Source of the DNA: Blastocatellia bacterium
GTDB taxonomy: Bacteria > Acidobacteriota > Blastocatellia > RBC074
Direction of reading: 5' to 3'
Length of the DNA stretch: 64,000 nt
Assembly (NCBI GenBank): GCA_016789725.1
Contig: JAEUQN010000011.1
Coordinates: 1,102 to 65,101 of the forward strand
Each line of letters begins with the position of its first letter. Within the stretch, counting starts at the first letter, position 1. Made by a program: the position numbers and the translations under genes. This document shows, piece after piece, positions 6,544-64,000 of this stretch. The notes beneath the pieces were generated by a model. That model worked only from the letters and a program-made list of their open reading frames with translations, did no database searches and was not told the origin of the DNA.

Positions 6544-6663
6544 TTGCTGCCTCCACTACATAAGAGCCGAGAGCCAGGTGAAGTGTTCGGACGAAAAATG
6601 AATTGTTCGTTGGTTTGCGCCGCGAATCTTTGTACAATCAGGCGTCGCAGACGGAATTACATT

Positions 6664-7731
6664 ATGAACGAACTCGACACTACTCACGATCCCCGCACCG
6701 CGCGTTTCAATGGTCTCAGGCACATGGTCGGTAATACGCCTTTGCTGGCGGTGCATTTCAAATTCCGAGGCCAACATCGCGTCATTTACGCCAAAGCCGA
6801 ATACCTGAACCTGACGGGCAGCATCAAGGATCGCATGGCGTTTTACATTTTGAAGAAAGCGTATCAGACCGGAGAAATTCAGCCCGGTGATTTAATTGCT
6901 GAAGCGACCAGCGGCAACACCGGGATTGCGTTTGCCGCACTGGGCCGCGCGCTCGGTCATCCGGTGCGAATTTATATGCCCGATTGGATGAGCGTCGAGC
7001 GCGTGCGTTTGATTCAAAGCTTCGGCGCAGAAATCATTCCCGTCAGCCGCGAACAGGGAGGGTTTCTCGGCAGCATTCAGCAAACCGAAGAGTTGCAACA
7101 AACACGCGGCAACGTGTTTTTGCCGTGCCAGTTTTCCAATTGCGCGAACGTCGAAGCGCACGAACAAACAACCGGGCCAGAAATCCAGGCGCAGTTGCAA
7201 TCGCGCGGTTTGCAGCCGGATGCGTTTGTGGCCGGTGTTGGCACGGGGGGGACAATTATGGGGACTGGTAAATATTTGCGGCGCATCAATCCCAACATTC
7301 GCTTGCACCCGCTTGAGCCTGCCGAATCGCCGACGATGTCCACCGGACACAAAGTAGGATCGCACCGGATTCAGGGCATCTCCGATGAATTCATACCTGC
7401 AATTGTCGAACTGAATCAACTTGATCGAATCCTTGGCGTACCGGACGGCGATGCAATTCTGATGGCGCAGAAACTGGCGGCTGATCTCGGCTTGGCCGTT
7501 GGCATTTCATCCGGCGCAAATTTCATCGGTGCTTTGATGGCGCAGAATGATCTGCGCGACACCGCCGTGGTGGCGACCATTTTCTGCGATGACAACAAGA
7601 AATATCTCAGCACCGATTTGTTGCGCAAAGAACCTGTCAAAGACGGCTATCTCAGCCCGGAAGTGGAATTGCTGCACTACGAAGCTTTGCGCCGCGATTG
7701 CTTTTTGTGTCAGGAGCAACCACGCCCGTAA
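6664..7731 (+). CDS. PLP-dependent cysteine synthase family protein (CysK/CysM-like)
   Basis: PLP lysine motif [16 protein letters not shown] loop and GVGTGGT loop. ATG 6664 (MNELDTT) chosen; the longer ORF from 6454 overlaps the divergent sigma gene. Confidence 0.85.
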
Positions 7732-50217: not shown

Positions 50218-51597
50218 GTGAGCAACCCAACCAATGTTTTGATTTTAGCTGCGGGCCTTGGTACGCGCATGAAAAGCGAGCAAGCCAAAGTCCTGCACAA
50301 ACTCGGCGGGCAGCCGTTAATTGCCCATGTTCTTCGCCGTGCGATTGCTTTAAATCCCGAAAAAATGATTGTTGTCACCGGCTATCAGGCTGAGGCTGTT
50401 GAAGCCGCTGCCCGCGTCGCACTCGCGCCCGAGATGGCTGAGCGATTGGTGTTTGTGCGACAAACGGAGCAACGCGGTACAGGGCACGCTGTGATGTGTG
50501 CGCGGGAGGTTTTGAAAAATGCCAAGGGATCATTGATTGTCAGTTACGGCGATGCTCCTTTGGTCAAATCTGCGACCCTGCAAAAGCTCAAAGCGGCACA
50601 CGAAGCAGGGAAGCACGCGGCCACGCTCATTACCATCAAGATGGAAATCCCGCCTGCCTATGGTCGTATCATCCGCGATAGCGAAGGCCAATTCGTCAAA
50701 ATCGTCGAGGATAAAGATTGCACACCTGAGCAAAAAGCCGTCAAAGAAGTGAATCCCGGCTTTTACTGTTTTGATATTCCGTCGTTGCTGCCAGCGCTGG
50801 ATCGGCTGACGACGAAGAATGCCCAAGGTGAATATTACCTGACCGACGTGCCGGAAATTCTGCGCACCGATGGCAAATCCGTTGGCACTGTTTTGCACGA
50901 TGATGACCTGGAACTACAGGGCTTCAACAATCGCGCCGAAATTGCCCTTGGGTGGAAACGTCTGCGCCATGAAATTTTGGAGCGATTGATGGCTGAAGGC
51001 GTGACCATCGTTGATCCCGATTCGACCTACATTGACGCCGAGGTTGAAATCGGACGCGACACGACAATTCACCCACAAGTGATTATTGAAGGAGCGTCGC
51101 GCATTGGCAGCTATTGCGAAATCCATTCGTGGTCACACCTGACGAACGTCGAAATCGGCGACAATTGCACGGTCAATAATTCGTGCGTGATCGAAGACAG
51201 CAAACTCACCGCAAATAACACGGTCGGCCCATTCGCACGGTTACGGATGCATGCCGTGCTGGATGATTCCGCCGTCGTTGGCAATTTCGTCGAACTCAAG
51301 AAATCCAAACTCGGTCGCAAATCGAAATCCATGCACCTGACCTATTTGGGCGATGCCACGATTGGCGAGCGCGTCAACATTGGCGCAGCGACCGTGACGT
51401 GCAATTACGACGGCAAAAACAAACACCAAACCATCATCGAAGACGATGTCAAAATCGGCTCCGACACGATGCTGGTTGCTCCCGTCAAAGTCGGACGCGG
51501 CGCAATGTCCGGCGCCGGTTCGGTGATTATCGAAGACGTGCCGGAAGACACGCTAGTCGCAGGCGTTCCGGCGAAAGTGAAGAAGAAATTGAAATAA
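50218..51597 (+). CDS. glmU: bifunctional UDP-GlcNAc diphosphorylase / GlcN-1-P acetyltransferase
   Basis: [13 protein letters not shown] motif, followed by a left-handed beta-helix hexapeptide C-terminus. GTG start. Confidence 0.92.
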
Positions 51598-51687: not shown

Positions 51688-53556
51688 ATGTGTGGAATTG
51701 TTGGATACGTCGGACATCAACAGGTCGTAGATGTTGTCATCGAAGGCTTACGCAAACTGGAATATCGTGGCTATGACTCCGCCGGAATCGCCGTCATCAA
51801 TCGCGAAGGCGAAATGCAGGTGCGCCGCGCCGAAGGCAAATTGCGCAACCTCGAAAACGTCCTCGCCAAAAATCCGATTGAAGGCGATTACGGCTTAGGT
51901 CACACGCGCTGGGCTACGCACGGACGACCGACCGAAGAGAACGCGCACCCGCATCGTTCCAGTGATGGCCGCATTTGCGTCGTGCATAACGGCATCATCG
52001 AAAACTATCTGGAACTCAAACGCGAGTTGCAAAAGCAGGATCATCGCTTCCAGTCCGAAACCGACACCGAAGTCGTCGCGCACCTGATCGAAAAGCATTT
52101 GCGCCAAAATCCCGACCTCGGTCTGGAAGGCGCATTCCGCGCAACGCTCAAGGAAATTCGCGGCATCTACGCGCTCGTAGCGATTTCTGCCGACGAACCG
52201 AACAAGCTTTGCGCCGCGCGTTTAGGCCCGCCCGTCGTCGTCGGCCTTGGCGAAGACGAATACTTCGTCGCGTCGGACATCCCCGCGATTCTCGAACACA
52301 CGCGCAACATGTTTTTCCTCGGCGACGGCGAAATGGCGACGCTCACGCGCGAAGGCGTAAAAGTCGAAGACGCCAGCGGCAAGCCCGTCAATCCAAACGT
52401 CCAACGCATCAACTGGGATCCGATTCAGGCGGAAAAAGGCGGCTTCAAGCATTTCATGCTCAAGGAAATTTATGAGCAACCGCGCGCCGTCCGCGACACG
52501 ACACAGAACCGCGTTTCGCTCGACACTGGCCACGTTTATCTGGACGAAATCAACATTCCCGCCGCCTATTTCCGCAGCTTCAGCGACATCAAAATCGCAG
52601 CTTGCGGAACGGCGTGGCATGCGGCGTTGGTCGCCAAATATTTGATCGAAGAACTCGCGCGCGTCCCGGTCGAAGTGGATTACGCTTCGGAATTCCGCTA
52701 TCGCAATCCGATCCTGACGCCGAGCACGTTGATGATGGTGATTTCGCAATCCGGCGAAACCGCCGACACGCTCGCCGCCTTGCGCGAAGCCAAAGAAAAA
52801 GCCTGCCGTTCGATTGCGATTTGCAACGTGCAAGGCTCAATGATGACGCGCGAAGCCGACGGCACAATCTACACGCACGCTGGGCCGGAAATCGGCGTCG
52901 CTTCGACGAAAGCCTTTACGTCGCAAATGGTCGCGGCCTATCTGTTCGCGCTCTACCTCGCGCAGGAACGCAAAACGCTTAGCGAAGAACAATTGCAATG
53001 GCACGTGCGGCATTTATCCGAACTGCCCGTGAAGATGGAAAAGCTGCTCAACGATCCGAGCATTGATTATGAAGACCTGTCGAAACACTTCGTCCTATCG
53101 AGCGATTTTCTGTATTTGGGACGCGGCATCAACTTCCCGATTGCGCTCGAAGGCGCATTAAAGCTGAAAGAAATTTCCTACATCCACGCCGAAGGCTACG
53201 CCGCCGGAGAAATGAAGCACGGCCCGAACGCGCTAATTGATTCGCGTCTGCCCGTTGTCGTCATCAACACGCTGGATTCCGACGACGAAAAATCAAAACT
53301 GCGCTACGAAAAAACCCTCTCGAACATTCAAGAAGTCCGCGCCCGCGACGGCATCGTCGTTGCGATTGTGACAGAGGGCGATCAAGACACGCGCGACATG
53401 GCTTCGTTCACCATTGAAGTCCCACCGTCGAGCGAATTACTCTCGCCCGTGCTGTCCACGATTCCGATGCAGTTGCTGGCCTATCACATCGCCGTGCGCC
53501 GAGGCTGCGACGTGGATCAGCCAAGGAATTTGGCGAAGAGTGTGACGGTGGAATAG
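51688..53556 (+). CDS. glmS: glutamine--fructose-6-phosphate aminotransferase
   Basis: MCGIVGY N-terminus, two SIS domains, C-terminal [15 protein letters not shown]. Confidence 0.96.
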
Positions 53557-53583
53557 TTATACAAAAAACTCTAAAACTTCATT

Positions 53584-53650
53584 TGTATGGGGAAAATAAA
53601 GTCGTACAACGAGAAATAAAGTCGTACAACGAGAAATAAAGTTGTACAAA
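53584..53650 (+). repeat. Tn7R-like end: terminal TGTATGG plus three abutting 20-bp direct repeats (putative TnsB binding sites)
   Basis: GGAAAATAAAGTCGTACAAC (53591-53610), GAGAAATAAAGTCGTACAAC (53611-53630), GAGAAATAAAGTTGTACAAA (53631-53650). Confidence 0.85.
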
Positions 53651-53669
53651 CCTAGATCGTTTCATAGAA

Positions 53670-53702
53670 TGCCCCTGGCCTATTTGGGTCAGGGGCATTT
53701 TT
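53670..53702 (+). terminator. terminator-like hairpin inside the transposon end, abutting the tnsA ATG
   Basis: TGCCCCTG (53670-53677) / CAGGGGCA (53690-53697) followed by TTTTT, then ATG at 53703. The only SD-like AGGGG lies in the 3' arm. Confidence 0.55.
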
Positions 53703-54545
53703 ATGAAGAAAAGTCGTTACGCTTGGGATGAAGCCAAATACAAGAGGTTTCTGAAGAAAGAAGGCCGTGGTCAAGGAACCGGGCAAGATTATCGTCCTTG
53801 GTTAGCAATCTATGACGTTTCCTCTACAGGTCGTGTGCATAGAATAAAGGGGTGGAAAACAAACCGGACGCATCATCTGCTATCCGATCAAGAAAGAAAT
53901 TTCTTTTATTTGCTTGAGTGGTCAGATTCGGTCATTGATGTCAGAGAACAATTCCCCCTCGATTTAGACGAAACCCAACTAATAGCTAAAGATATGGGAA
54001 TCAAGCACCCAGCGGATCAATCAAGTGGGTTTCCTTGGGTTTTTACCACTGATTTTCTCATTACAGTTCGTAATCAAAATCAAATCTCACAAATTGCAAG
54101 GACAGTTAAGCCCTCAGATTTTTTAGAAAAAGATCGAATCATCGAAAAGTTTGAGTTGGAAAGACGTTATTGGGTTTCCAGAGGTATTGATTGGGGGATC
54201 GTCACAGAAAAAGACCTGCCACAGGTACTTGTAACAAATATTGGGTTTATACACGGAGACTATTGGCTTGAGGCTACAAGTGAAACAAGTGCTGTCGAAA
54301 TGCTGGCTTTAGTAGATTCGTTCAAATTACGGCTACTGAACTATACAGGAACGGTACATCATTTTACAGATGCCTTTGATATAGACTTTAACCTGAAAGC
54401 TGGAACCGCCCTACGATTGCTAAAATATCTGATTGCAAAGAAACAAGTCACTGTAGATATGAATGAAAAGATAAAATTTACAAAATCAGTTCAATCACTT
54501 ATTTGCCAGGATGTCCGATCTCAATATAAGGCTCGTATTGCTTGA
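53703..54545 (+). CDS. tnsA: Tn7 transposition protein TnsA (endonuclease subunit)
   Basis: Collinear with Tn7 TnsA: EGRGQGTGQDYRPWL, HHLLSDQE, LEWSDSVIDVREQFPL (E), TTDFLI (D), RTVKP (K), ELERRYW. Confidence 0.92.
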   Translation: MKKSRYAWDEAKYKRFLKKEGRGQGTGQDYRPWLAIYDVSSTGRVHRIKGWKTNRTHHLLSDQERNFFYLLEWSDSVIDVREQFPLDLDETQLIAKDMGIKHPADQSSGFPWVFTTDFLITVRNQNQISQIARTVKPSDFLEKDRIIEKFELERRYWVSRGIDWGIVTEKDLPQVLVTNIGFIHGDYWLEATSETSAVEMLALVDSFKLRLLNYTGTVHHFTDAFDIDFNLKAGTALRLLKYLIAKKQVTVDMNEKIKFTKSVQSLICQDVRSQYKARIA

Positions 54546-56731
54546 TCATTATGATTGCTGTCAATTCACTTCTGAAAATTAAAGAGGGCAGTGTCCACCT
54601 CTCTGTTGTCCGGGTGTTATGGGTAGATGAATTAAATGATGAGGGGTGGGTTATCAATGTAATAGAAGATAAGGGGGTTCCTTATCTGATGTCTCTTTCT
54701 GCCTTGAAAACAAACATCGCTAACGAAGCTATCGAGTTAATGAAGGAAGACCCTTGGGCTCCAATTGTTGGGGATGAGACGCTTACAACAAAACAGCGAG
54801 AACTCAGAGATAAAGGTTGGTCGGCTATAGAAGGGCTTGTCAAACCTGAGCTTGAGCCACAAATATTCCAAAAAGATTTCCGTGGAGAGTTAATCAAGAA
54901 AGCAGCCGAAAAAAGTGAACTAGAAATAAAAACAATTTACAAATACCTACGCAAATTCTGGCAAAGAGGCAAGGTTCAGAATGCACTGATTCCTGATTTT
55001 TTTAATTGCGGAGGAAAAGGAAAAAACAAAAGTGACGGGGCAAAGAAAAGAGGGAGACCGAGAAAGTTTGGTAACGATCCTGAGATTGGTGAAGGAATAA
55101 ACATTAACGAAGAGATCAGGAGAATCTTTCATACGGCACTCAAAAGATTTTATCTAAATGAGAAAGAAACGCCTTTGCCCGTAGTCTATGATTTGATGGT
55201 AGGGGAATATTTTGTAGACAAGCTTATCTATGAAAATGGGCAGGCTAAAACAGTACTCGTTCCCGATAGTGAAAAGCCTTCTTATGGGCAATTCAAGTAT
55301 TGGGCCAGCCAAATTATTTCACCCGAAACAGCCCAAAAGGCGCGCAAGGGCGGTATTGCTTATGATAGAGAAAACAGGGCGCATCTTGGCAGTTCAACAG
55401 GTGAGGTATATGGGCCAGGCGAAAGATGTCAGATTGATGCCACAGTAGCAGATATATACCTAGTTTCTCGCTATAACAGAAAATGGGTCATTGGCAGACC
55501 TGTAATATATGTAATCATAGATGTTTTCAGCCGCCTTATTGTTGGAATTTATGTAGGGCTTGAAGGGCCTTCATGGTTGGGCGCAATGATGGCTATCTGC
55601 AACGCCGCTAGAGATAAGTTTTCTTTCTGTCAGGAGTATAAGGTTCCTATGGATGCGGCTAAATGGCCTTGTGCAGGGCTTCCGCAGATATTGCTGAGCG
55701 ATGGAGGGGAAGTAAAAAGTCGGAAGGCAGATCCTATTGTTAGGAATCTTGGTGTTCACCTTGAGGCGGCAAAAGCCTACGCCCCCGATTGGAAAGGAAT
55801 TATTGAAAGACATTTCCGTACTATTCAAGAGAAAGTAAAGCCATTTGTTCCTGGTTATGTTGAAAAAGACGCGCTGAAAAGAGTGGGAAACGCTTATCGC
55901 TTGGATGCCAAGTTGGACATTTTTAAATTCACACAAATTATCATTCAGTGCGTGTTACAACACAATTCTAGCTACCTCCCTACTTATCCAAGGGATGAAC
56001 AGATGATAGCTGATGATGTTTCTCCTATACCACTGCATTTATGGGACTGGGGAATTAGAAATCGGTCGGGGTCGCTGAAGTATTTTCCTGAAGAAATCGT
56101 CAAGTTAAACTTGATGCCAGTTGGAATGGCAAATATAACATCGCGTGGCATCCTTTTTGAAAAAATGAGGTATAGCTGCGAACGAGCTATACGTGAGCAG
56201 TGGTTTGATCGAGCAAGTATTAAGGGAAATCAAAAAATTGAGATTTCATACGATCCGAGGACAACAAACTATGTGTATTTGAAGTCTTCTGATGGTAGAA
56301 GCTATGAAACTTGCTATTTGCTTGACCCTGACAATAGGTACTCTAATAAAGACATATATGAAATTACATACTTACATCAGTATGAAGAATATATGAAGCA
56401 GCGAAATAGAGGAGCGAAGCAGCAAGAAAACGTAAATCTTTATGGATATATTAAGCAAAAAGTTCAAGAAGCTGAAAATCAAGCAAATTTGGTTTCTGCC
56501 ATTCCTGAGTCTAAAAAGAACGTTTTGAATATTCGAGAAAATCGTGAGCAAGAAAAAGCGGAGTTACGCAAAGAACAAGTTTTTGACCTTTCTCCAGTTG
56601 CAAATAATACTAAAGAAACAACGGGAACCATGTTTTCGCCTGAAAGAGCAAGGGACATTCAAGAGCGAGCGTCGCCTGACTTTCTAAATTTATTAAAGCA
56701 AAAGCGAAAAGAGATAAAAGATGGAGAGTAA
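54542..56731 (+). CDS. tnsB: Tn7 transposase TnsB (DDE)
   Basis: DDE triad candidates CQIDATVADIYL, ILLSDGGE and WKGIIERHFRT. TTG 54542 overlaps the tnsA stop (alternative ATG 54551). Confidence 0.9.
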   Translation: MIIMIAVNSLLKIKEGSVHLSVVRVLWVDELNDEGWVINVIEDKGVPYLMSLSALKTNIANEAIELMKEDPWAPIVGDETLTTKQRELRDKGWSAIEGLVKPELEPQIFQKDFRGELIKKAAEKSELEIKTIYKYLRKFWQRGKVQNALIPDFFNCGGKGKNKSDGAKKRGRPRKFGNDPEIGEGININEEIRRIFHTALKRFYLNEKETPLPVVYDLMVGEYFVDKLIYENGQAKTVLVPDSEKPSYGQFKYWASQIISPETAQKARKGGIAYDRENRAHLGSSTGEVYGPGERCQIDATVADIYLVSRYNRKWVIGRPVIYVIIDVFSRLIVGIYVGLEGPSWLGAMMAICNAARDKFSFCQEYKVPMDAAKWPCAGLPQILLSDGGEVKSRKADPIVRNLGVHLEAAKAYAPDWKGIIERHFRTIQEKVKPFVPGYVEKDALKRVGNAYRLDAKLDIFKFTQIIIQCVLQHNSSYLPTYPRDEQMIADDVSPIPLHLWDWGIRNRSGSLKYFPEEIVKLNLMPVGMANITSRGILFEKMRYSCERAIREQWFDRASIKGNQKIEISYDPRTTNYVYLKSSDGRSYETCYLLDPDNRYSNKDIYEITYLHQYEEYMKQRNRGAKQQENVNLYGYIKQKVQEAENQANLVSAIPESKKNVLNIRENREQEKAELRKEQVFDLSPVANNTKETTGTMFSPERARDIQERASPDFLNLLKQKRKEIKDGE

Positions 56732-58418
56732 TCTTTCTGACTCACTTATTAACTATATTGCCAAGATAGCAGAATATCGTGACCCACTTCTTCGTGACTA
56801 CAGGGGTAACCCTATGATCGAAGCTCTTCCACCGATCTTGAGCAAAGATGAGTTTGTTAAAAAGGTTAGCTCGTATCCCACATTTGATGAAACCGAAAAA
56901 CTATTGCCTGCTGAAATCAGGATGCACTGTGTTTACAGGCTCACACGATATTTTCAACCGTTAGATCGGCATATTATATTAGAGCAGAAACTCACACAGC
57001 TTATTAGACAAGGCTATATTGCTCGAAATCCGTTGGATCCCAAGTTTGCATTACGCTTGAGACAAATTGGAGAGGTGTTGAGCCAAGCTATACAACGAAA
57101 AGAGCTACCTATTAATGAAATTGTGGATGTACAGTCATCCGCGAATAGTTATACTTTAATCGGTATTTCAGGTTTGGGAAAAACTACTGCTGTAGAAAGA
57201 ATTTTGCGACTGTACCCCCAAGTAATCCTTCATGGTGAATATAAAGGCATACCGCTTAATTTCTACCAGGTCGTATGGGTCAAGGTTGAGTGTCCACATG
57301 CAGGAAGCCTGAAAGACATCTGTGGAGATTTCTTCAAGGAGATTGATGATCTGTTAGGAACACCCTATTACAAAAAATTTGGCGACCCTCGGATTACCGA
57401 ATATGTAATGCTCGCACACATGTGTTTGATTGCAATTAGACATGGAGTAGGTGCGATAGTAATTGATGAACTTCAAAACTTAAGCCTTGCCAAAAGCGGG
57501 GGGGCAGAGGCGGCCATGAATTTCTTTGTAAAGATGGTCAATAAAATTGGCGTACCTGTTATCAGAATTGGTACCAATAAGGTAAAGGATATTTTACAAG
57601 TTGACTTCAGACATGCAAGAAGATCTATTGGAGACTACTGGGATCGTTTTAAATTAGACAACGAATATGACATGGCGCTGTGGGATTTTCTAATCGAAGA
57701 ATTATTCTCTTATCAATGGACACAGGAAAAAGCGACGCTGACAACAGAGATCAAAGAGGCTCTCTATGATGAAAGCCAAGGCATTATTGATATTGGAATT
57801 AAACTTTATATGATGGCGCAATGGCGGGCCATTTTATTTGATCGAGATCAGATTTCTGCTGAAGATATCAGGCTCGTTGCCAGAGATGGTCTGAAAATGG
57901 TTCAACCGATGATCCAAGCCCTTCGCTTAAATGATCTCAAACAACTCGAAAAATATGATGACATCAAATCTTTAGATATAAAGTCATATTACGAAGAGTA
58001 TATTGACGACATCAAGATTTCACATACCAAGAAGATTGAGAAGGCCAAAAAGGCTATTACGGTATCTGCCTTAGACTCCCTCAATTCTCTTATAATAGGC
58101 TTGGTTGATTTGGGAATCACACCAACATTGGCCAAAAAACACGCTGGTCTAGTTTGGGCTGGAAGGGATGAGATTGAGACTATGGAAGAATTACTGGGGA
58201 AAGCTTACAAAGCAGCCTTAATTGACAGCGGCGGTACAGCGCAATCCCCAAAAGACTCTTCAAAAAAGAAGCCCCTCTCACAAATTGATTTCCCTAACGA
58301 CATCAGACAAATAGTTACAAAAGGCCGTGACCAAAAACTATCTGCCTATGATGCATTAAAACATGGCGGATTTATTAAATCCCCGGTGAAGGACTTCCTG
58401 GATGAAAAAGCCGCGTGA
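56721..58418 (+). CDS. tnsC: Tn7 AAA+ regulator TnsC
   Basis: Walker A GISGLGKTT and Walker B AIVIDELQNL. Overlaps the tnsB stop by 11 nt. Confidence 0.9.
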   Translation: MESNLSDSLINYIAKIAEYRDPLLRDYRGNPMIEALPPILSKDEFVKKVSSYPTFDETEKLLPAEIRMHCVYRLTRYFQPLDRHIILEQKLTQLIRQGYIARNPLDPKFALRLRQIGEVLSQAIQRKELPINEIVDVQSSANSYTLIGISGLGKTTAVERILRLYPQVILHGEYKGIPLNFYQVVWVKVECPHAGSLKDICGDFFKEIDDLLGTPYYKKFGDPRITEYVMLAHMCLIAIRHGVGAIVIDELQNLSLAKSGGAEAAMNFFVKMVNKIGVPVIRIGTNKVKDILQVDFRHARRSIGDYWDRFKLDNEYDMALWDFLIEELFSYQWTQEKATLTTEIKEALYDESQGIIDIGIKLYMMAQWRAILFDRDQISAEDIRLVARDGLKMVQPMIQALRLNDLKQLEKYDDIKSLDIKSYYEEYIDDIKISHTKKIEKAKKAITVSALDSLNSLIIGLVDLGITPTLAKKHAGLVWAGRDEIETMEELLGKAYKAALIDSGGTAQSPKDSSKKKPLSQIDFPNDIRQIVTKGRDQKLSAYDALKHGGFIKSPVKDFLDEKAA

Positions 58419-60331
58419 GATTGACTTTCTTCCCCACCCCGTATCCGGATGAATTACTGTACAGCGCGCTTGCCCGCTATCATTTGCGTAGTGGAAATCT
58501 CAGCGCCAAAGAAACCCTTCAAGAATTATTTGGCTCTACCACTGTCATAGCAACTATTGATCTTCCCTCGCATCTTGATTCCTTAATCGCGCGCCTTCCG
58601 CCTCTTGCCAGTTTTTCTTCAGAGGGACTAATTTGCAACCATACGCTCCTTCCCTACTACGCTCCATTTTTGAAGCCAGAGATTGTGGCCCAGATCAAGC
58701 AATCGATGAAGGGGCATCAGTGGGGCGACATCCACACTCGGTGTGGAATTGTTGCAAGCAGCATCAATCGCCCAATGTATTTACGATTTTGCCTTGTCTG
58801 TTTTCAGGCCGATGTAAAGACCTTTGGCGAACCATACTGGCATCGTGTTCACCAACTTCCTGGCGTACTCATCTGCCCGACACATGAGGCATTGCTTCAC
58901 AACAGCACAATCCGTGTTTTAGGTAGAAATCGGCACGAATTTGTGGCAGCGGATTCCAGATGTTGCATTCCCAAACCACAAGCAGTTTCAGTCAAGGCTG
59001 CCACTTGGGGCAAACTTCTGGTTCTGGCGCAAGATTCAGCCGCGCTTCTGAAACATGCTTTCCCTATTAAGGGATCGCACTGGTTTCGGCAGCAATATGG
59101 CGCGCTGTTAATTGACCGGAAATTAGCGAATGTTTCAGGGCGCGTGCGGCAAAAAGATTTCCGGGATCAATTCCGACAATTTTACGGAGATGAATTGTTA
59201 CGCTTGGTCAATTCAGAACTTGAAACCGACAAAGATATTGATTGGCTTGCCAGCATTGTGCGCAAACATCGCAAAGCATTCCACCCGCTACGACATTTAC
59301 TCTTGCTTCAGTTTTTTGATCTGACACCGGAGATACTTTGGAACTCGGTGTTTACATCTCAACCCTTTGGAATCGGCCCGTGGGCTTGCTTCAATGGCGC
59401 GGCCAATCATTACCGTGAGTGCGTCATTACCAAGTTCACCATTTCCTGGTCAGCAGATACAAAACGTCCGCTGGGGCATTTTGTTTGCGCTTGTGGATTT
59501 GGCTATACGACCAGCGATCCCAAAGTTGCAGGAGGCTTGTCTTTAAAGCCGCTCCGTGTAAAATCCTTTGGGCCAACCTGGGAAAATAAGCTGAAACAAT
59601 TGACAGAGAAAACGCTGGGCTTGAGAGAGACAGCAAGGCAGATGAAAGTAGACCCGAAAACGGTTTTACATCAATGCCAGCGTCTGGGCCTATCGTTAGG
59701 TAAAAATCAGGTTATTGAGCAGAAACAAAGTGCCACGACTCACAGTGATTCCATTGAGGTACTTCAGGCTACAACGCGGGATCGAAGAAAAGAATGGCAA
59801 GAATTGTGTGTGCAATTTCCGCAGGCATCAGTAACAGAGCTGAGACGAAAGGCCCCCGCCCTTTGGACTTGGTTGTACCGACATGAAAAAGACTGGTTGC
59901 GACAGAACGTTCCTGCTCCAATTCGCCAAGCCCCACAGGTCAAAAGAGTAGATTGGCAAGTACGAGATCAGCAAACCGCCACTGAAGTGCAAGCTGTCAT
60001 ACAACAAATTCTGGCAACAGTCCCCTTGCAGCGTGTCACCAAAAGTCGGATTGGCAAAAAGATAGGAAGGCTCGCATTACTTGAGCGGTTATTGGACAAG
60101 TTGCCGCGAACGAAATCACTACTGGAAAAGCGTTGTGAATCCCCTGCGCAGTACCGAATTCGTCGTATCCGATGGGCAGTTCAGCAGCTTCTTCGCCAAA
60201 ACTCCGCCGTTCGAGTTTGGGAAGTTGTTCGGCTTGCGCGTTTACGAAAAGAATACGCTACTCAACTCGAAACATTTATCCAGAGAGAAATTAAACGTTC
60301 CGTAACCTCACTGCGCGAACAGGCAAAGTGA
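58415..60331 (+). CDS. tnsD: TnsD/TniQ-family target selector
   Basis: TniQ N-terminus FFPTPYPDELLYSALARYH. CCCH zinc finger CLVCF...ICPTH. GTGA overlap with the tnsC stop. Confidence 0.88.
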   Translation: MRLTFFPTPYPDELLYSALARYHLRSGNLSAKETLQELFGSTTVIATIDLPSHLDSLIARLPPLASFSSEGLICNHTLLPYYAPFLKPEIVAQIKQSMKGHQWGDIHTRCGIVASSINRPMYLRFCLVCFQADVKTFGEPYWHRVHQLPGVLICPTHEALLHNSTIRVLGRNRHEFVAADSRCCIPKPQAVSVKAATWGKLLVLAQDSAALLKHAFPIKGSHWFRQQYGALLIDRKLANVSGRVRQKDFRDQFRQFYGDELLRLVNSELETDKDIDWLASIVRKHRKAFHPLRHLLLLQFFDLTPEILWNSVFTSQPFGIGPWACFNGAANHYRECVITKFTISWSADTKRPLGHFVCACGFGYTTSDPKVAGGLSLKPLRVKSFGPTWENKLKQLTEKTLGLRETARQMKVDPKTVLHQCQRLGLSLGKNQVIEQKQSATTHSDSIEVLQATTRDRRKEWQELCVQFPQASVTELRRKAPALWTWLYRHEKDWLRQNVPAPIRQAPQVKRVDWQVRDQQTATEVQAVIQQILATVPLQRVTKSRIGKKIGRLALLERLLDKLPRTKSLLEKRCESPAQYRIRRIRWAVQQLLRQNSAVRVWEVVRLARLRKEYATQLETFIQREIKRSVTSLREQAK

Positions 60332-60335
60332 GATT

Positions 60336-62009
60336 GTGGAAATACTAAAAGTAAAGCCGTGGCCTTTTGATAAAAATGAGCCTGCTACGCTGAATTGGAT
60401 ACTATCCCCTATACGCAAGATTAGTGGATACGAAGTCATTGCTATATTCAAAACCCTTTTCACCGGTAAACTAGAACGAGTTCCGCTCCCCTTGGGCATA
60501 TTGCCCGCCCTGAGAATTGGCCGGGTATATATTGATGGAAAATTAGCAGACCAAATCCCCCAACCACAAAAACTCGATATTCCCAATATAAGAAATGGCA
60601 CACTGGTAGACGGCTTCAAAATGCCGCCTTCTCTCTATAGCCTCCTAGAGCAACGATCATCTTGCGAGGAAAACCTGTGGCGCTTTGAATTGAATGCCAA
60701 TACATATTTTCTTCCTTGCCTGGAAATGATCAGAGCGTTTTTCATTCACACGAAAACACTGGCAAATAAAATTCTTATACCCAATGGTTTGGACACATTA
60801 ATCGGCGATGAAGAGATCAAGGGAAACGAGTTGATCCTACATTTGGATGAAACATTCCCTCTCAATTTGCTAAAAACTAAGGAAATGGAAGCAGCGCACC
60901 TCAATCATTTGATCTGGCTGAGACATAATCCTTCAGCACGTATGGCTTGGGAGTTTGTTGCCCGCAAATTATATGCTCAAGCGATTAAGAACAATCCATT
61001 CGATTTGTTTCAGGCATTAAGCGAGCGAATTCCTTTACAAGTTATCCCGCCTTTTGCTGAATCGCTCAGGATGGAGTTCACCAGCGTTTCGCACGGAAAT
61101 CAACATCTGGTTTTAGAAATCTTAGGATTTGAAGAAACGACACCTCTGCCCTTTGATCGAGTTAGTTATACGCACCCTCGGCTTGAAGAGCCTCGAAAAA
61201 CCACCGTTACGAAAATCCGCAAGATTCCGATTGAAGTAGGAGAAGAAATTGAATTGGACACTTCTGGCCTTCCAGCCAAAAATGAATCAAACCCAACAAT
61301 CGTGAAAACGCCTGCCGTTGAATTCCGGCTCTTACATTTCGTTCCACTGAAAAGAATTTATCAGAAGCGACCGGATGACAATTCTCCCAAGAGAATCACA
61401 GTAGCGGAGGAAACGCCCGTGTCCTCGGTTGTTAGAAGCGCCAATCCAACCGTTTATGGTGGCCTGCATAACCCGCTCGAGTTTGCAGGACTAACAGCAC
61501 CTGCCCCCGACCTTCCCGACTATCAAGAAAAAGGACTAAATCAATTTCTTACGGCGGTGAATGTATTGGCTTCTCACTACCAGCAAGAGTTGATGGTCTA
61601 TCCTTTCATTGGAGAATTGGCCTATGACAAATCGTTCTCGAAAGACGAGCAAAATCACCAGCGAAAATATGCTTGGGTGAGCATTCAATCGCGCCAATCA
61701 ACCGCACATTGTTTTATCCTCGAACTGGCACGAGTCGAAGGGCGACAAATTGCAACGCTATTCATCAAAGCGCCTCAAAAAGTTTCCAGCCCGCTACAAG
61801 AAAAACTGACTGAATCTTTGAATAAAAATAATGGGCATTTTAACCCTGACAACTTTTCATGCGATTTAGCAGAAAAAGTGGAAACACTTCGGCATTCCAG
61901 TTTGGGCGTAAAAGAAGGGGAAAGCGAGAAACGAAGGGCTTGGCGTGAGATTTATCACTGGGCAAATAGGATGGCTTCTGTGCTAGAGAACCTGAGATTC
62001 AAGATATGA
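60336..62009 (+). CDS. fifth tns-operon protein, probable distant TnsE-like target selector
   Basis: 557 aa. GTG lies 4 nt after the tnsD stop. No TniQ or NTPase motifs. NTYFLPCLEMIRAFFI at residues about 122-137 resembles the clamp-binding motif recalled at TnsE 121-131. Confidence 0.55.
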   Translation: MEILKVKPWPFDKNEPATLNWILSPIRKISGYEVIAIFKTLFTGKLERVPLPLGILPALRIGRVYIDGKLADQIPQPQKLDIPNIRNGTLVDGFKMPPSLYSLLEQRSSCEENLWRFELNANTYFLPCLEMIRAFFIHTKTLANKILIPNGLDTLIGDEEIKGNELILHLDETFPLNLLKTKEMEAAHLNHLIWLRHNPSARMAWEFVARKLYAQAIKNNPFDLFQALSERIPLQVIPPFAESLRMEFTSVSHGNQHLVLEILGFEETTPLPFDRVSYTHPRLEEPRKTTVTKIRKIPIEVGEEIELDTSGLPAKNESNPTIVKTPAVEFRLLHFVPLKRIYQKRPDDNSPKRITVAEETPVSSVVRSANPTVYGGLHNPLEFAGLTAPAPDLPDYQEKGLNQFLTAVNVLASHYQQELMVYPFIGELAYDKSFSKDEQNHQRKYAWVSIQSRQSTAHCFILELARVEGRQIATLFIKAPQKVSSPLQEKLTESLNKNNGHFNPDNFSCDLAEKVETLRHSSLGVKEGESEKRRAWREIYHWANRMASVLENLRFKI

Positions 62010-62078
62010 GTGGTTCTGCTCCGACTTCATAAGAGTAAAATCGTTAGATAAGCAACCAATTCTCATTGAATTGGTCGG

Positions 62079-63587
62079 CTAAAGATTGCGGCTAAACAAG
62101 CGTCTTTGCAAAGAAGCGGATTCGAGGTCATCTGAAACAGTAGGAGTTTCTTGTCGCTCTGGCTTCAACCTGGCGGCGGCTTTTTTCTTTGGCAGATTGG
62201 CCGGCGATCCTCGGTCATTACGAATACGTTCCAGCAAGGCCACAGCCGGTTCATAGTCGCGCCCTTCTCGTCGCGCCAATGCCGCTTCGGTCGGCACGAG
62301 TTCGCCGCGAAAGGCTTTCGCTAAAATGGATTGTTGCAACTTGTCCACCTGCCCTTTGGCGCGTTGGTAGCGGGCTTCCAATTGGTCGGCCAGTTGAAAC
62401 ATTGCTTCGATGCGACGGACGAGTTCTTGTTGCTCAGCGAGTGGCGGTACTGGCGTAGGAAAATTCTTGATATCTCTCACATTGAGGTGTGGTGATGCGC
62501 TTCCACCTGTCAATTCTCTAACTTGTGTAAGTATTTCTGGGCTGTTTAGCCAGTACATCAAAAACGAGGATGAATAAGAATGATTCGTTCGCATTAACAT
62601 CATTCGCTGCCCTAAACATAACTTTACGTTTGATGGGATAATGCAAGCAATTCCTAAAATCCCTCCTTCTCGACTATACAAAACATCGCCCGGCATAGGG
62701 GTAAGCCTTTCAATTCTACGTTGATAGGTTTCCTCAGAAACAAATCTGACTTCAGTAAGATCAAGAAACCCAGGCTTGAAATTTGTAGTTCGGACGCAAA
62801 TATGACCAGAATCTGCCCACTTAGGCGTCGAATGAGGGCAATCAACAACAGCCTCACAAATTGATTCGAGCGAACACCACTGCCAAGTTTCAGGGATTTC
62901 AAAAAGAGATGTTGCCGTCTCTTGCTTATTCTCTTTTTGAAATCGTTCCTCATTCTCTGAATACTTATTACGCCAATCAACCGTCAATTCTCCCGAACAC
63001 GCCGCCGCCAGCACGGCCTGCCGAAAGCGTTTGAGGATCACGGGAATTTTCGCCAGTCGTTGCTGACAAGCTTCCACTTTGCCGAGCAGCGTTTCCAGCC
63101 TGGCTACGATGCGGCGTTGTTCGGCGAGAGGAGGTAAAGTAAAGATTAGTCCTGATAGTTTTGTCGCGTTGCAATTAGGCTGAGCCGAACCTGAGATATT
63201 TTCAGAAATCTGATCCCAATATGATTTTGATTGGAAGAAACAAGCAAGGAACTCAGGCAAAACGCTTAAAGAAGGTCTGACTCGAATCAGATAAGAAGCG
63301 AAGACCGTCACAGGGCAAGACTTGATAAGAAAACTCTTTCCGGTAGTTGCTCCGGTTCTGGCAAATACGAGATCTCCCGGCGTTAATTCATAGTTTGAGA
63401 TTTTGTTTTCAGGAATCGCACAGTATGGAACGGTTTCCCAATTGACAGAACCATTTTGAATATCAGTTATCCTGAGATACTTTGGCCCCTTCGGCTCCTG
63501 AATCGCGCTGGCAGTGTATCCATAGCTTATATTATCAGAGACTTGCCCAACATTAGCCTCACCCCATCCTTCAGGCAATTGACTCAT
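62079..63587 (-). CDS. hsdS: type I restriction-modification specificity subunit HsdS
   Basis: Two target-recognition domains, each followed by a conserved coiled-coil repeat (PPLAEQRRIVARLETLL... and PPLAEQQELVRRIEAMF...AKAFRGELV). Confidence 0.9.
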   Translation of the reverse strand: MSQLPEGWGEANVGQVSDNISYGYTASAIQEPKGPKYLRITDIQNGSVNWETVPYCAIPENKISNYELTPGDLVFARTGATTGKSFLIKSCPVTVFASYLIRVRPSLSVLPEFLACFFQSKSYWDQISENISGSAQPNCNATKLSGLIFTLPPLAEQRRIVARLETLLGKVEACQQRLAKIPVILKRFRQAVLAAACSGELTVDWRNKYSENEERFQKENKQETATSLFEIPETWQWCSLESICEAVVDCPHSTPKWADSGHICVRTTNFKPGFLDLTEVRFVSEETYQRRIERLTPMPGDVLYSREGGILGIACIIPSNVKLCLGQRMMLMRTNHSYSSSFLMYWLNSPEILTQVRELTGGSASPHLNVRDIKNFPTPVPPLAEQQELVRRIEAMFQLADQLEARYQRAKGQVDKLQQSILAKAFRGELVPTEAALARREGRDYEPAVALLERIRNDRGSPANLPKKKAAARLKPERQETPTVSDDLESASLQRRLFSRNL

Positions 63588-64000
63588 GCAGCAACGCCCT
63601 CTTCTTTCTCAATCAACGCAATGATCTCGCGCAAATCATCCACCACAGCTTCGAGTTCGGTGATGGCTTCGCTCGCCAAATCCTGCGGCTCTGGCAAAGT
63701 GTCAGCATCTTCCAGCGATTCATCCTTGAGAATTGGAATATCAAGTTTGTAATCACGAGCTTTGATTTCGCTGATATGAAACTTGCGGAAGCGGGTGCCT
63801 TCTCCTAAATCTGCGCGCTCGCTCCTGCCGTTCGGGTCTGCGCCGTAGCATTTTTCAAAATCGGCAAAATGTTCATCTGACAACGGGCGTTCTTTTTTCG
63901 TCACGCCCGGCACGTTGGAGCGTCCGTCATAAATCCAAACGTTTTCGGTCGGGAAGCCTTTCTGCAAAAAGATGACGTTGGCTTTGACGCCCTGGCTGTA
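63584..64000 (-). CDS. hsdM: type I R-M methyltransferase HsdM, C-terminal part (5' end outside the window)
   Basis: FLQKGFPTENVWIYDGRSNVPGVTKKERPL... typical HsdM C-terminus. The frame stays open to the window edge. The stop overlaps the hsdS start (ATGA-type overlap). Confidence 0.85.
   Translation of the reverse strand, partial: YSQGVKANVIFLQKGFPTENVWIYDGRSNVPGVTKKERPLSDEHFADFEKCYGADPNGRSERADLGEGTRFRKFHISEIKARDYKLDIPILKDESLEDADTLPEPQDLASEAITELEAVVDDLREIIALIEKEEGVAA

Follow-up and report, generated by a model that had tools for sequence, protein, structure and literature searches.

A prototypic Tn7-type transposon probably occupies the attTn7 site downstream of glmS in a Blastocatellia chromosome

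Results and Discussion

The glmS attachment site and the right end of the element

The window analysed here, a stretch of 64,000 nt from contig JAEUQN010000011.1 of a Blastocatellia bacterium (assembly GCA_016789725.1), contains in its last 10.4 kb what is very probably the glmS-proximal part of a Tn7-family transposon. The target gene glmS (51688-53556, plus strand), which codes for glutamine-fructose-6-phosphate aminotransferase (Pfam GATase_6/7 plus SIS), ends with the stop codon TAG at 53554-53556. The last 15 residues of the encoded protein are the same as in Escherichia coli, and at the DNA level 40 of the last 63 nt of the gene are identical. By analogy with the +23 to +58 numbering of E. 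coli, we place a predicted TnsD-binding site in the last ~35 nt of glmS (approximately 53523-53558). The stop codon is followed by an AT-rich spacer of 27 nt and then by a terminal TGT at 53584-53586. These positions agree with the original prediction, which was made from the sequence alone and proposed a Tn7-family element at this site. The spacer is similar in the other loci which we used for comparison, with 25 nt in E. coli, 25 nt in L001 (GCA_043775925.1, a Blastocatellia metagenome-assembled genome, MAG), 24 nt in L085 (Joint Genome Institute (JGI) contig 3300066608, 495 kb, untyped) and 24 nt in L040 (Pyrinomonadales MAG JBBQUS010000084.1). The location downstream of glmS, with the right end and tnsA proximal to this gene and a spacer of 27 nt, resembles that of prototypic Tn7 elements, which insert about 20-25 nt past the stop codon.

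The five bases directly before the terminal TGT, TCATT (53579-53583), represent the right-hand copy of a candidate 5-bp target-site duplication. The centre of this putative duplication is at +25 nt from the end of the stop codon, while in the Tn7-bearing E. coli chromosome it is at +23. Thus, the spacing, which was originally said to match that of the E. coli attTn7, is close to it but 2 nt longer than the measured value. At the junction (53500) the GC content falls from 0.52-0.57 (about 0.54) on the host side to 0.37-0.44 (about 0.40) inside the element, in line with the drop that had been noticed before.

The right end itself (53584-53653, plus strand) consists of the terminal 5'-TGT, 8 nt and three directly abutting 20-bp repeats in head-to-tail orientation (approximately 53594-53613, 53614-53633 and 53634-53653). 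Repeats 1 and 2 are identical (AAATAAAGTCGTACAACGAG), and repeat 3 (AAATAAAGTTGTACAAACCT) differs from them in central and 3' bases. The 17-nt core of the repeat is present in three copies in the window with 0.10 copies expected, and none of 100 shuffled sequences reached three. The resemblance to the right end of Tn7 (Tn7R), which had been suggested on the basis of the repeats, includes their register. The E. coli Tn7 right end starts with TGTGGGCGGAC-AATAAAGTCTTAAAC... and the right end in the window with TGTATGGGGAA-AATAAAGTCGTACAAC..., so that in both the arrangement is TGT-N8-AATAAAGT, with AATAAAGT beginning at position 12 if the T of TGT is taken as position 1. This register is also kept in L085, in L210 and L211 (Pyrinomonadaceae MAGs), in L209 (the same MAG as L040) and in a miniature element in L040. 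Since it is common to Tn7R and to these relatives, the terminus can be placed at 53584 with much more certainty than from the repeats by themselves. Based on the repeats and on the shared register, we predict that the three repeats are TnsB-binding sites; their number varies between elements, with four sites in Tn7R and two in L210. The earlier view that the right end is fully resolved holds for the terminal TGT and the array of sites, but not for the 5-bp duplication, which needs the left end.

Between the last repeat and tnsA, RNA folding revealed a strong hairpin with a U-run (U5) behind it, the whole ending at the tnsA start codon (53663-53702, plus strand). Its folding energy is -28.4 kcal/mol (z = -6.05), and 0 of 200 shuffled sequences were equally stable. 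A hairpin with a U-run, unrelated in sequence, is found at the equivalent position in L085 (3468-3503), in L001 (3301-3342) and in Tn7 from the E. coli chromosome (L206, 14093-14133). We infer from the position kept across these elements that the role of the hairpin is conserved. One possibility is that it stops transcripts reading through from glmS, the native terminator of which would be displaced by the insertion; a paper by Gay et al. 1986, cited in PMC2918618, says in its title that Tn7 inserts into the glmS terminator. Alternatively, the hairpin may occlude the ribosome-binding site and limit the translation of tnsA. A promoter scan gave a single sigma-70-like match (53643-53670), which is no better than chance.

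The genes tnsA to tnsD

Next to the right end, five tns open reading frames (ORFs) follow each other on the plus strand, overlapping or nearly abutting, and all of them are open. Their order, tnsA-tnsB-tnsC-tnsD and a fifth gene with tnsA nearest to glmS, is that of Tn7 and was correctly recognised in the original prediction, as was the integrity of the TnsA, TnsB and TnsC motifs. We mapped the functional residues by pairwise alignment to Tn7 from the E. coli chromosome, using for TnsA, TnsB and TnsC the residue numbers customary for the catalytic and Walker residues of Tn7.

The first gene, tnsA (53703-54545), encodes the restriction-endonuclease-like subunit of the heteromeric transposase (280 aa, Pfam Tn7_TnsA-like_N plus Tn7_Tnp_TnsA_C). 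Its best match in the PDB is Tn7 TnsA (1f1z, E = 2e-48), and E64, D117 and K136 align with the Tn7 residues E63, D114 and K132. The gene tnsB (54542-56731), for the DDE transposase of the Mu/Tn7 type which binds the ends, may start with TTG at 54542 (729 aa) or with ATG at 54551 (726 aa). A direct Pfam scan detected only the Mu-transposase C-terminal domain, while the precomputed Pfam matches are HTH_TnsB and TnsB_N. The best PDB match is Tn7 TnsB (7pik, E = 1.5e-110), and the DDE residues D299, D387 and E422 align with D273, D361 and E396 of Tn7. Among 5.8 billion clustered proteins, the nearest relative of this TnsB is 51% identical, and TnsBs of Nostoc and Anabaena, at 44-47% identity, are almost as close as the acidobacterial ones.

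The third gene, tnsC (56721-58418), encodes the AAA+ regulator and adaptor (565 aa, Pfam AAA_22/TniB), with Tn7 TnsC (8glu/7mbw, E = 3.4e-81) as the best PDB match. Its Walker A motif GLGKT with K154 (K142 in Tn7) and the Walker B residues D249 and E250 (D232 and E233 in Tn7) are conserved. The protein encoded by tnsD (58415-60331), the sequence-specific selector for attTn7 in glmS, has 638 aa and matches Pfam TnsD with E = 6e-103, plus TniQ; in the PDB it is closest to Tn7 TnsD (8glu_X, E = 1.7e-39). The CCCH zinc finger, as the motif is defined in PMC2918618, comprises C126, C129, C154 and H157 in the window and C124, C127, C152 and H155 in Tn7.

The fifth gene as a divergent tnsE

The product of the fifth gene (60336-62009, plus strand, 557 aa) alone has no match in Pfam, in NCBIfam or among PDB sequences, and even together with its four close relatives no PDB match was obtained. 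Aligned globally with E. coli TnsE, it is 21% identical. These observations would be in line with an unrelated, new target selector occupying the position of tnsE. However, comparisons with sequence profiles give a different picture. Only four close relatives, with 72-80% identity, exist among the 5.8 billion proteins, two of them from Blastocatellia MAGs. A profile of these five sequences retrieved 307 relatives at E <= 0.001 from 1.84 billion representatives, most of those listed having 500-570 aa, and the Pfam model TnsE_C is matched by 48 of 81 aligned relatives at E <= 0.01. The profile of the 81 sequences matches TnsE's C-terminal domain in the PDB (5d16, E = 2e-8). In the hhalign comparison with E. 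coli TnsE it spans residues 8-533 of 538 (probability 99.6%, E = 1e-24, 495 columns).

The predicted structure points in the same direction. An AlphaFold2 model based on the 81-sequence alignment reached a predicted local distance difference test (pLDDT) of 90.1 and a predicted template modelling (pTM) score of 0.74; the model based on five sequences only was unusable (pLDDT 37.6). When the former was compared to the PDB with Foldseek, seven matches with E < 0.001 were obtained, all of them to TnsE's C-terminal domain (best E = 8e-5 with a template modelling (TM) score of 0.70; TM 0.64-0.71 on the target), and the next match had E = 0.09. In the light of these relatives, of the nearly full-length alignment and of the high-confidence model, a new, unrelated selector is very improbable. 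Judged by profile and modelled fold, the fifth gene is a divergent tnsE, the Tn7 gene for the selector of replicating or conjugating DNA, and the element is of the full tnsABCDE type.

In the N-terminal part of the protein, the sequence PCLEMIRAFFI (residues 127-137) is aligned by hhalign with PQLELARSLFL of Tn7. This motif reportedly binds the beta-clamp (Parks et al. 2009). Across the family, E130 does not vary, and P127 and R133 hardly do. A conserved N-terminal motif of TnsE was described to mediate the interaction with a processivity factor (PMC4678854).

The full set of genes also bears on the question whether the window harbours a CRISPR-associated transposon (CAST), a type in which tniQ is linked to Cas effector genes and a CRISPR array, or another non-prototypic Tn7-like element with extra selector genes past the window. 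The cargo past position 64000 is out of view, and such genes might be located there. On the other hand, full-length TnsD and TnsE already supply both classical pathways, no Cas domain was detected among the scanned ORFs of the 10.4 kb (53703-64000), and TnsB is much nearer to Tn7 TnsB, with the E value given above, than to the TnsBs of type I-F3 or V-K CASTs (1e-20 to 1e-14). Neither an Rfam scan nor a tRNA scan gave a match anywhere in the window. We therefore give this explanation next to no weight. An element of the Tn5053/Tn402 type (tniABQR) was also considered and rejected: such elements have no TnsA and transpose replicatively by means of the resolvase TniR, but in the window TnsA is intact and a resolvase was not seen.

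Related loci and distribution

The host is a member of the Blastocatellia (Acidobacteriota), as judged from the relatives of its GlmS, which agrees with the acidobacterial context proposed earlier. Among species-representative genomes, the 80 best GlmS relatives are nearly all from Acidobacteriota, one being labelled only 'bacterium'. The closest one, with 95% identity, is encoded in L001. This locus also has tnsABCDE after glmS, but the element is a different one with another end-repeat sequence and other cargo. The comparison with the region downstream of glmS in related genomes, which the original prediction had called for, revealed nothing Tn7-like after glmS in the next-closest genomes (GlmS 91-92% identical); one of them has a terminator-like hairpin after glmS and then an unrelated ORF on the reverse strand. 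Altogether, Tn7-like sequence adjoins glmS in only 2 of the 80 loci. Thus the insertion is patchy among close relatives, as expected of a mobile element and not of an ancestral island.

Further elements were found via the fifth gene. The search with TnsE revealed tnsABCDE homologues beside glmS in two Pyrinomonadaceae MAGs and in one Syntrophomonadaceae MAG, and the look-up of a TnsE relative led to another glmS-adjacent tnsABCDE locus on L085. The original statement that an acidobacterial host is outside the usual range of such elements was overstated: Acidobacteria are already listed by Benler et al. 2021 (PMC8649781), and we found four more glmS loci of this kind, which belong to Blastocatellia, to Pyrinomonadaceae or are untyped.

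Some features of the related loci deserve mention on their own. In L001 an additional ORF of 263 aa without Pfam match (512-1303) is located between glmU and glmS; it is absent from the window, where glmU (50218-51597) directly precedes glmS. In L040 (6550-7430) a miniature Tn7-like element of 290 bp is present right after glmS. It extends from TGT at 6574 to ...GACA at 6863, has three abutting right sites and three inverted left sites ~65 bp apart, and is flanked by the 5-bp direct repeat GCAGG. It is the only complete pair of ends which we found in the wider group, and it supports the end architecture and the length of the duplication for the group, but not for the copy in the window. Only one base past this mini-element a second right end follows; of the decayed element to which it belongs, no more than a fragment of TnsD is left. 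The arrangement looks as if a non-autonomous mini-element had been inserted in tandem beside an older, decayed one.

The locus L209 (1-16456) harbours a tnsABCDE copy with a right end (TGT at ~141) and without glmS upstream. By eye, the reverse strand of the upstream 140 nt resembles a part of an HD-domain gene. A 430-aa ORF on the reverse strand is inserted between tnsC and tnsD, and the distal 4 kb share 91% identity with the sequence that lies downstream of the decayed L040 element. L209 may represent an insertion outside of glmS or a strain variant.

Cargo and the question of the left end

Downstream of tnsE and convergent with it, the window contains two genes of a type I restriction-modification (R-M) system on the minus strand. 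The gene hsdS (62079-63587) encodes a specificity subunit of 502 aa, which matches Pfam Methylase_S twice and the NCBIfam type I R-M S subunit with E = 4e-77, below the curated cut-off. It is overlapped at its start by the 3' part of hsdM for the methyltransferase (63584-64000; C-terminal part of Pfam N6_Mtase), whose frame is open to the edge of the window. Both are probable cargo. In L003, a tnsE 80% identical to that of the window is followed by an HsdS fragment with 63% identity, beside a gene for an AAA_15/SMC-like ATPase. This pairing of a related tnsE with an HsdS fragment suggests that the R-M genes travel with the element. Defence genes are typical cargo of Tn7-like elements (PMC8649781).

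The region downstream of tnsE in L003 (1808-4952) comprises in total a 280-aa gene of unknown function, the 543-aa ATPase of AAA_15/SMC_N type and the HsdS fragment, possibly a different defence cargo. At ~4.9 kb of L003 the GC content jumps from 0.45 to 0.65 and no recognisable transposon end is present; this locus may be chimeric or decayed.

The left end would carry inverted, spaced AATAAAGTYGTAC sites ending with ...ACA, followed by a second TCATT. No inverted copy of the repeat was detected on the opposite strand of the whole 64-kb window, and none was found in L001-L004, L085 and L209-L211. In L004, where tnsE is frameshifted, we found no transposon end. Scanning the genome collection for a 16-mer yielded ~119 matches, essentially the level of chance, and an exact 50-mer from the window edge had no match in this collection. 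Look-ups of the exact TnsE and HsdS proteins also retrieved no record. The double-site pattern of the right end was not matched in JGI metagenomes, and a TnsB-based metagenome scan retrieved only two irrelevant fragments. Among the relatives, no close one with both ends was found.

Several points weigh against the reading as a prototypic Tn7-type transposon. The window stops inside hsdM, so that the left end and the second TCATT would be beyond it, and the inverted repeats are absent from the DNA in view. The source contig, with 67,953 bp, extends past the window by ~4 kb at most. In addition, the TnsB-binding sites are predictions from repeats and register, and the hairpin preceding tnsA was not called by a simple terminator scan. 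Taking the first two points together, the element could be stranded or truncated, with an intact right half and a left end that was lost or rearranged, which would leave an immobile, fixed island. Decay is indeed seen in related loci: in addition to the frameshift in L004, tnsC is split in L001, L040 contains a deletion derivative with a TnsD fragment only, and in L209 tnsC and tnsD are separated by the extra ORF. In the window, however, the five tns frames are open and close-packed, every catalytic residue is kept and the right end is undamaged. Furthermore, the closest genomes are without an element or harbour another one, and this speaks for a recent arrival. We consider a stranded element unlikely.

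Every defining feature of the prototypic Tn7 family that is testable in the window was found. With a probability of roughly 85%, we conclude that the last 10.4 kb of the window, with the R-M genes as probable cargo, are the glmS-proximal (right) part of a prototypic Tn7-type transposon which has inserted into attTn7 in a Blastocatellia chromosome.

Proposed mechanism and possible exchange of the selector module

Judged from the homologous Tn7 of E. coli, transposition of such an element could proceed as follows. TnsD would bind the conserved last ~35 nt of glmS via its CCCH zinc finger and recruit TnsC, which would activate the transposase composed of TnsA (with its E/D/K residues) and TnsB (with the DDE triad). 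TnsB would be bound to the three abutting 20-bp sites described here and to sites at the left end outside of the window. Cut-and-paste transposition to a position ~25 nt past the glmS stop codon would then place the right end next to glmS and generate a 5-bp duplication, presumably of TCATT. A second pathway, into replicating or conjugating DNA, would depend on TnsE, with its conserved N-terminal motif (PCLEMIRAFFI) and a C-terminal domain that binds DNA.

The comparison with L001 revealed an unusual pattern of conservation. Between the window (53703-62009) and L001 (3346-11668), TnsA, TnsB and TnsC are 53%, 50% and 57% identical, TnsD 68% and TnsE 76%, with the host GlmS at 95%. In the other five pairs, TnsE falls behind TnsB in conservation (30% and 47%, respectively, for L085) and is the least conserved protein of all. 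Since the order of identities between the window and L001 is the reverse of that in every other pair, it suggests that a tnsD-tnsE selector module was exchanged between Tn7 lineages which share attTn7. No sharp breakpoint was found at the DNA level between the two loci, and we regard such an exchange as a lead only.

Based on these observations, one may speculate that the element is active and belongs to a deep branch of prototypic Tn7 elements in Acidobacteriota which has hardly been sampled, and that its selector module was possibly swapped; we put this forward tentatively and hold it to be rather doubtful. If true, nature would provide an example of a single selector module that serves two very different cores and end sequences, and this would suggest that TnsE-type targeting of mobile plasmids operates in a phylum with little-known conjugative plasmids.

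The element is of interest for several reasons, while the understanding of Tn7 itself is unchanged by it. It adds Blastocatellia, a hard-to-culture soil group with few genetic tools, to the hosts of well-documented tnsABCDE elements at attTn7 that look complete, and a Tn7 system from Acidobacteria themselves could become a means of single-copy integration in these organisms. Natural variants which combine distinct pairs of TnsB and ends with similar TnsD and TnsE could inform on the question which Tn7 components are interchangeable.

Comparison with known systems

The element resembles E. coli Tn7 in the identity and order of its five genes, in the location of tnsA at the right end and of the right end at glmS, and in the catalytic, Walker and zinc-finger residues. 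The succession of TGT, 8 nt, AATAAAGT.. and abutting TnsB-type sites, the hairpin with a U-run before the ATG of tnsA, and an insertion point 24-27 nt past the glmS stop codon are also shared. It differs from Tn7 in sequence, the identities of TnsA, TnsB, TnsC, TnsD and TnsE being 40, 33, 38, 33 and 21%, and in having three instead of four right-end sites, a spacer of 27 instead of 25 nt and a TnsD which is longer by 130 aa. The visible cargo is a type I R-M system, whereas Tn7 carries a class 2 integron, and the host belongs to the Acidobacteriota.

With the sister elements in L001, L210, L211 and L085 it has in common the location at glmS, the spacer, the TGT, two or three abutting repeats, the hairpin and the tnsABCDE genes. 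Their TnsA, TnsB and TnsC are 44-57% identical to those of the window, and the cargo differs, with YD-shell and ankyrin-repeat genes in L001 and methyltransferase and helicase genes in L085. Among named organisms, the closest relatives of the core proteins come from other phyla and were compared by these proteins: the TnsA of a Tn7-like element on a plasmid of Nostoc punctiforme PCC 73102 is 52% identical, and that of a Bacillus cereus plasmid 46%.

In the survey of Benler et al. 2021 (PMC8649781), Acidobacteria, with four species, are among the rarer hosts of Tn7-like elements, and tnsE was considered to be probably under-detected, being poorly conserved. The clade described here is missed by the Pfam TnsE model, which implies that tnsE is under-counted in surveys, as these authors suspected. 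Faure et al. 2023 (PMC10293859) reported tnsE from close Tn7 relatives and from the Tn6022 group, and from no other elements. The element in the window fits the group of close Tn7 relatives, to which it adds a clade with a TnsE missed by Pfam and a TnsB lineage without a close relative.

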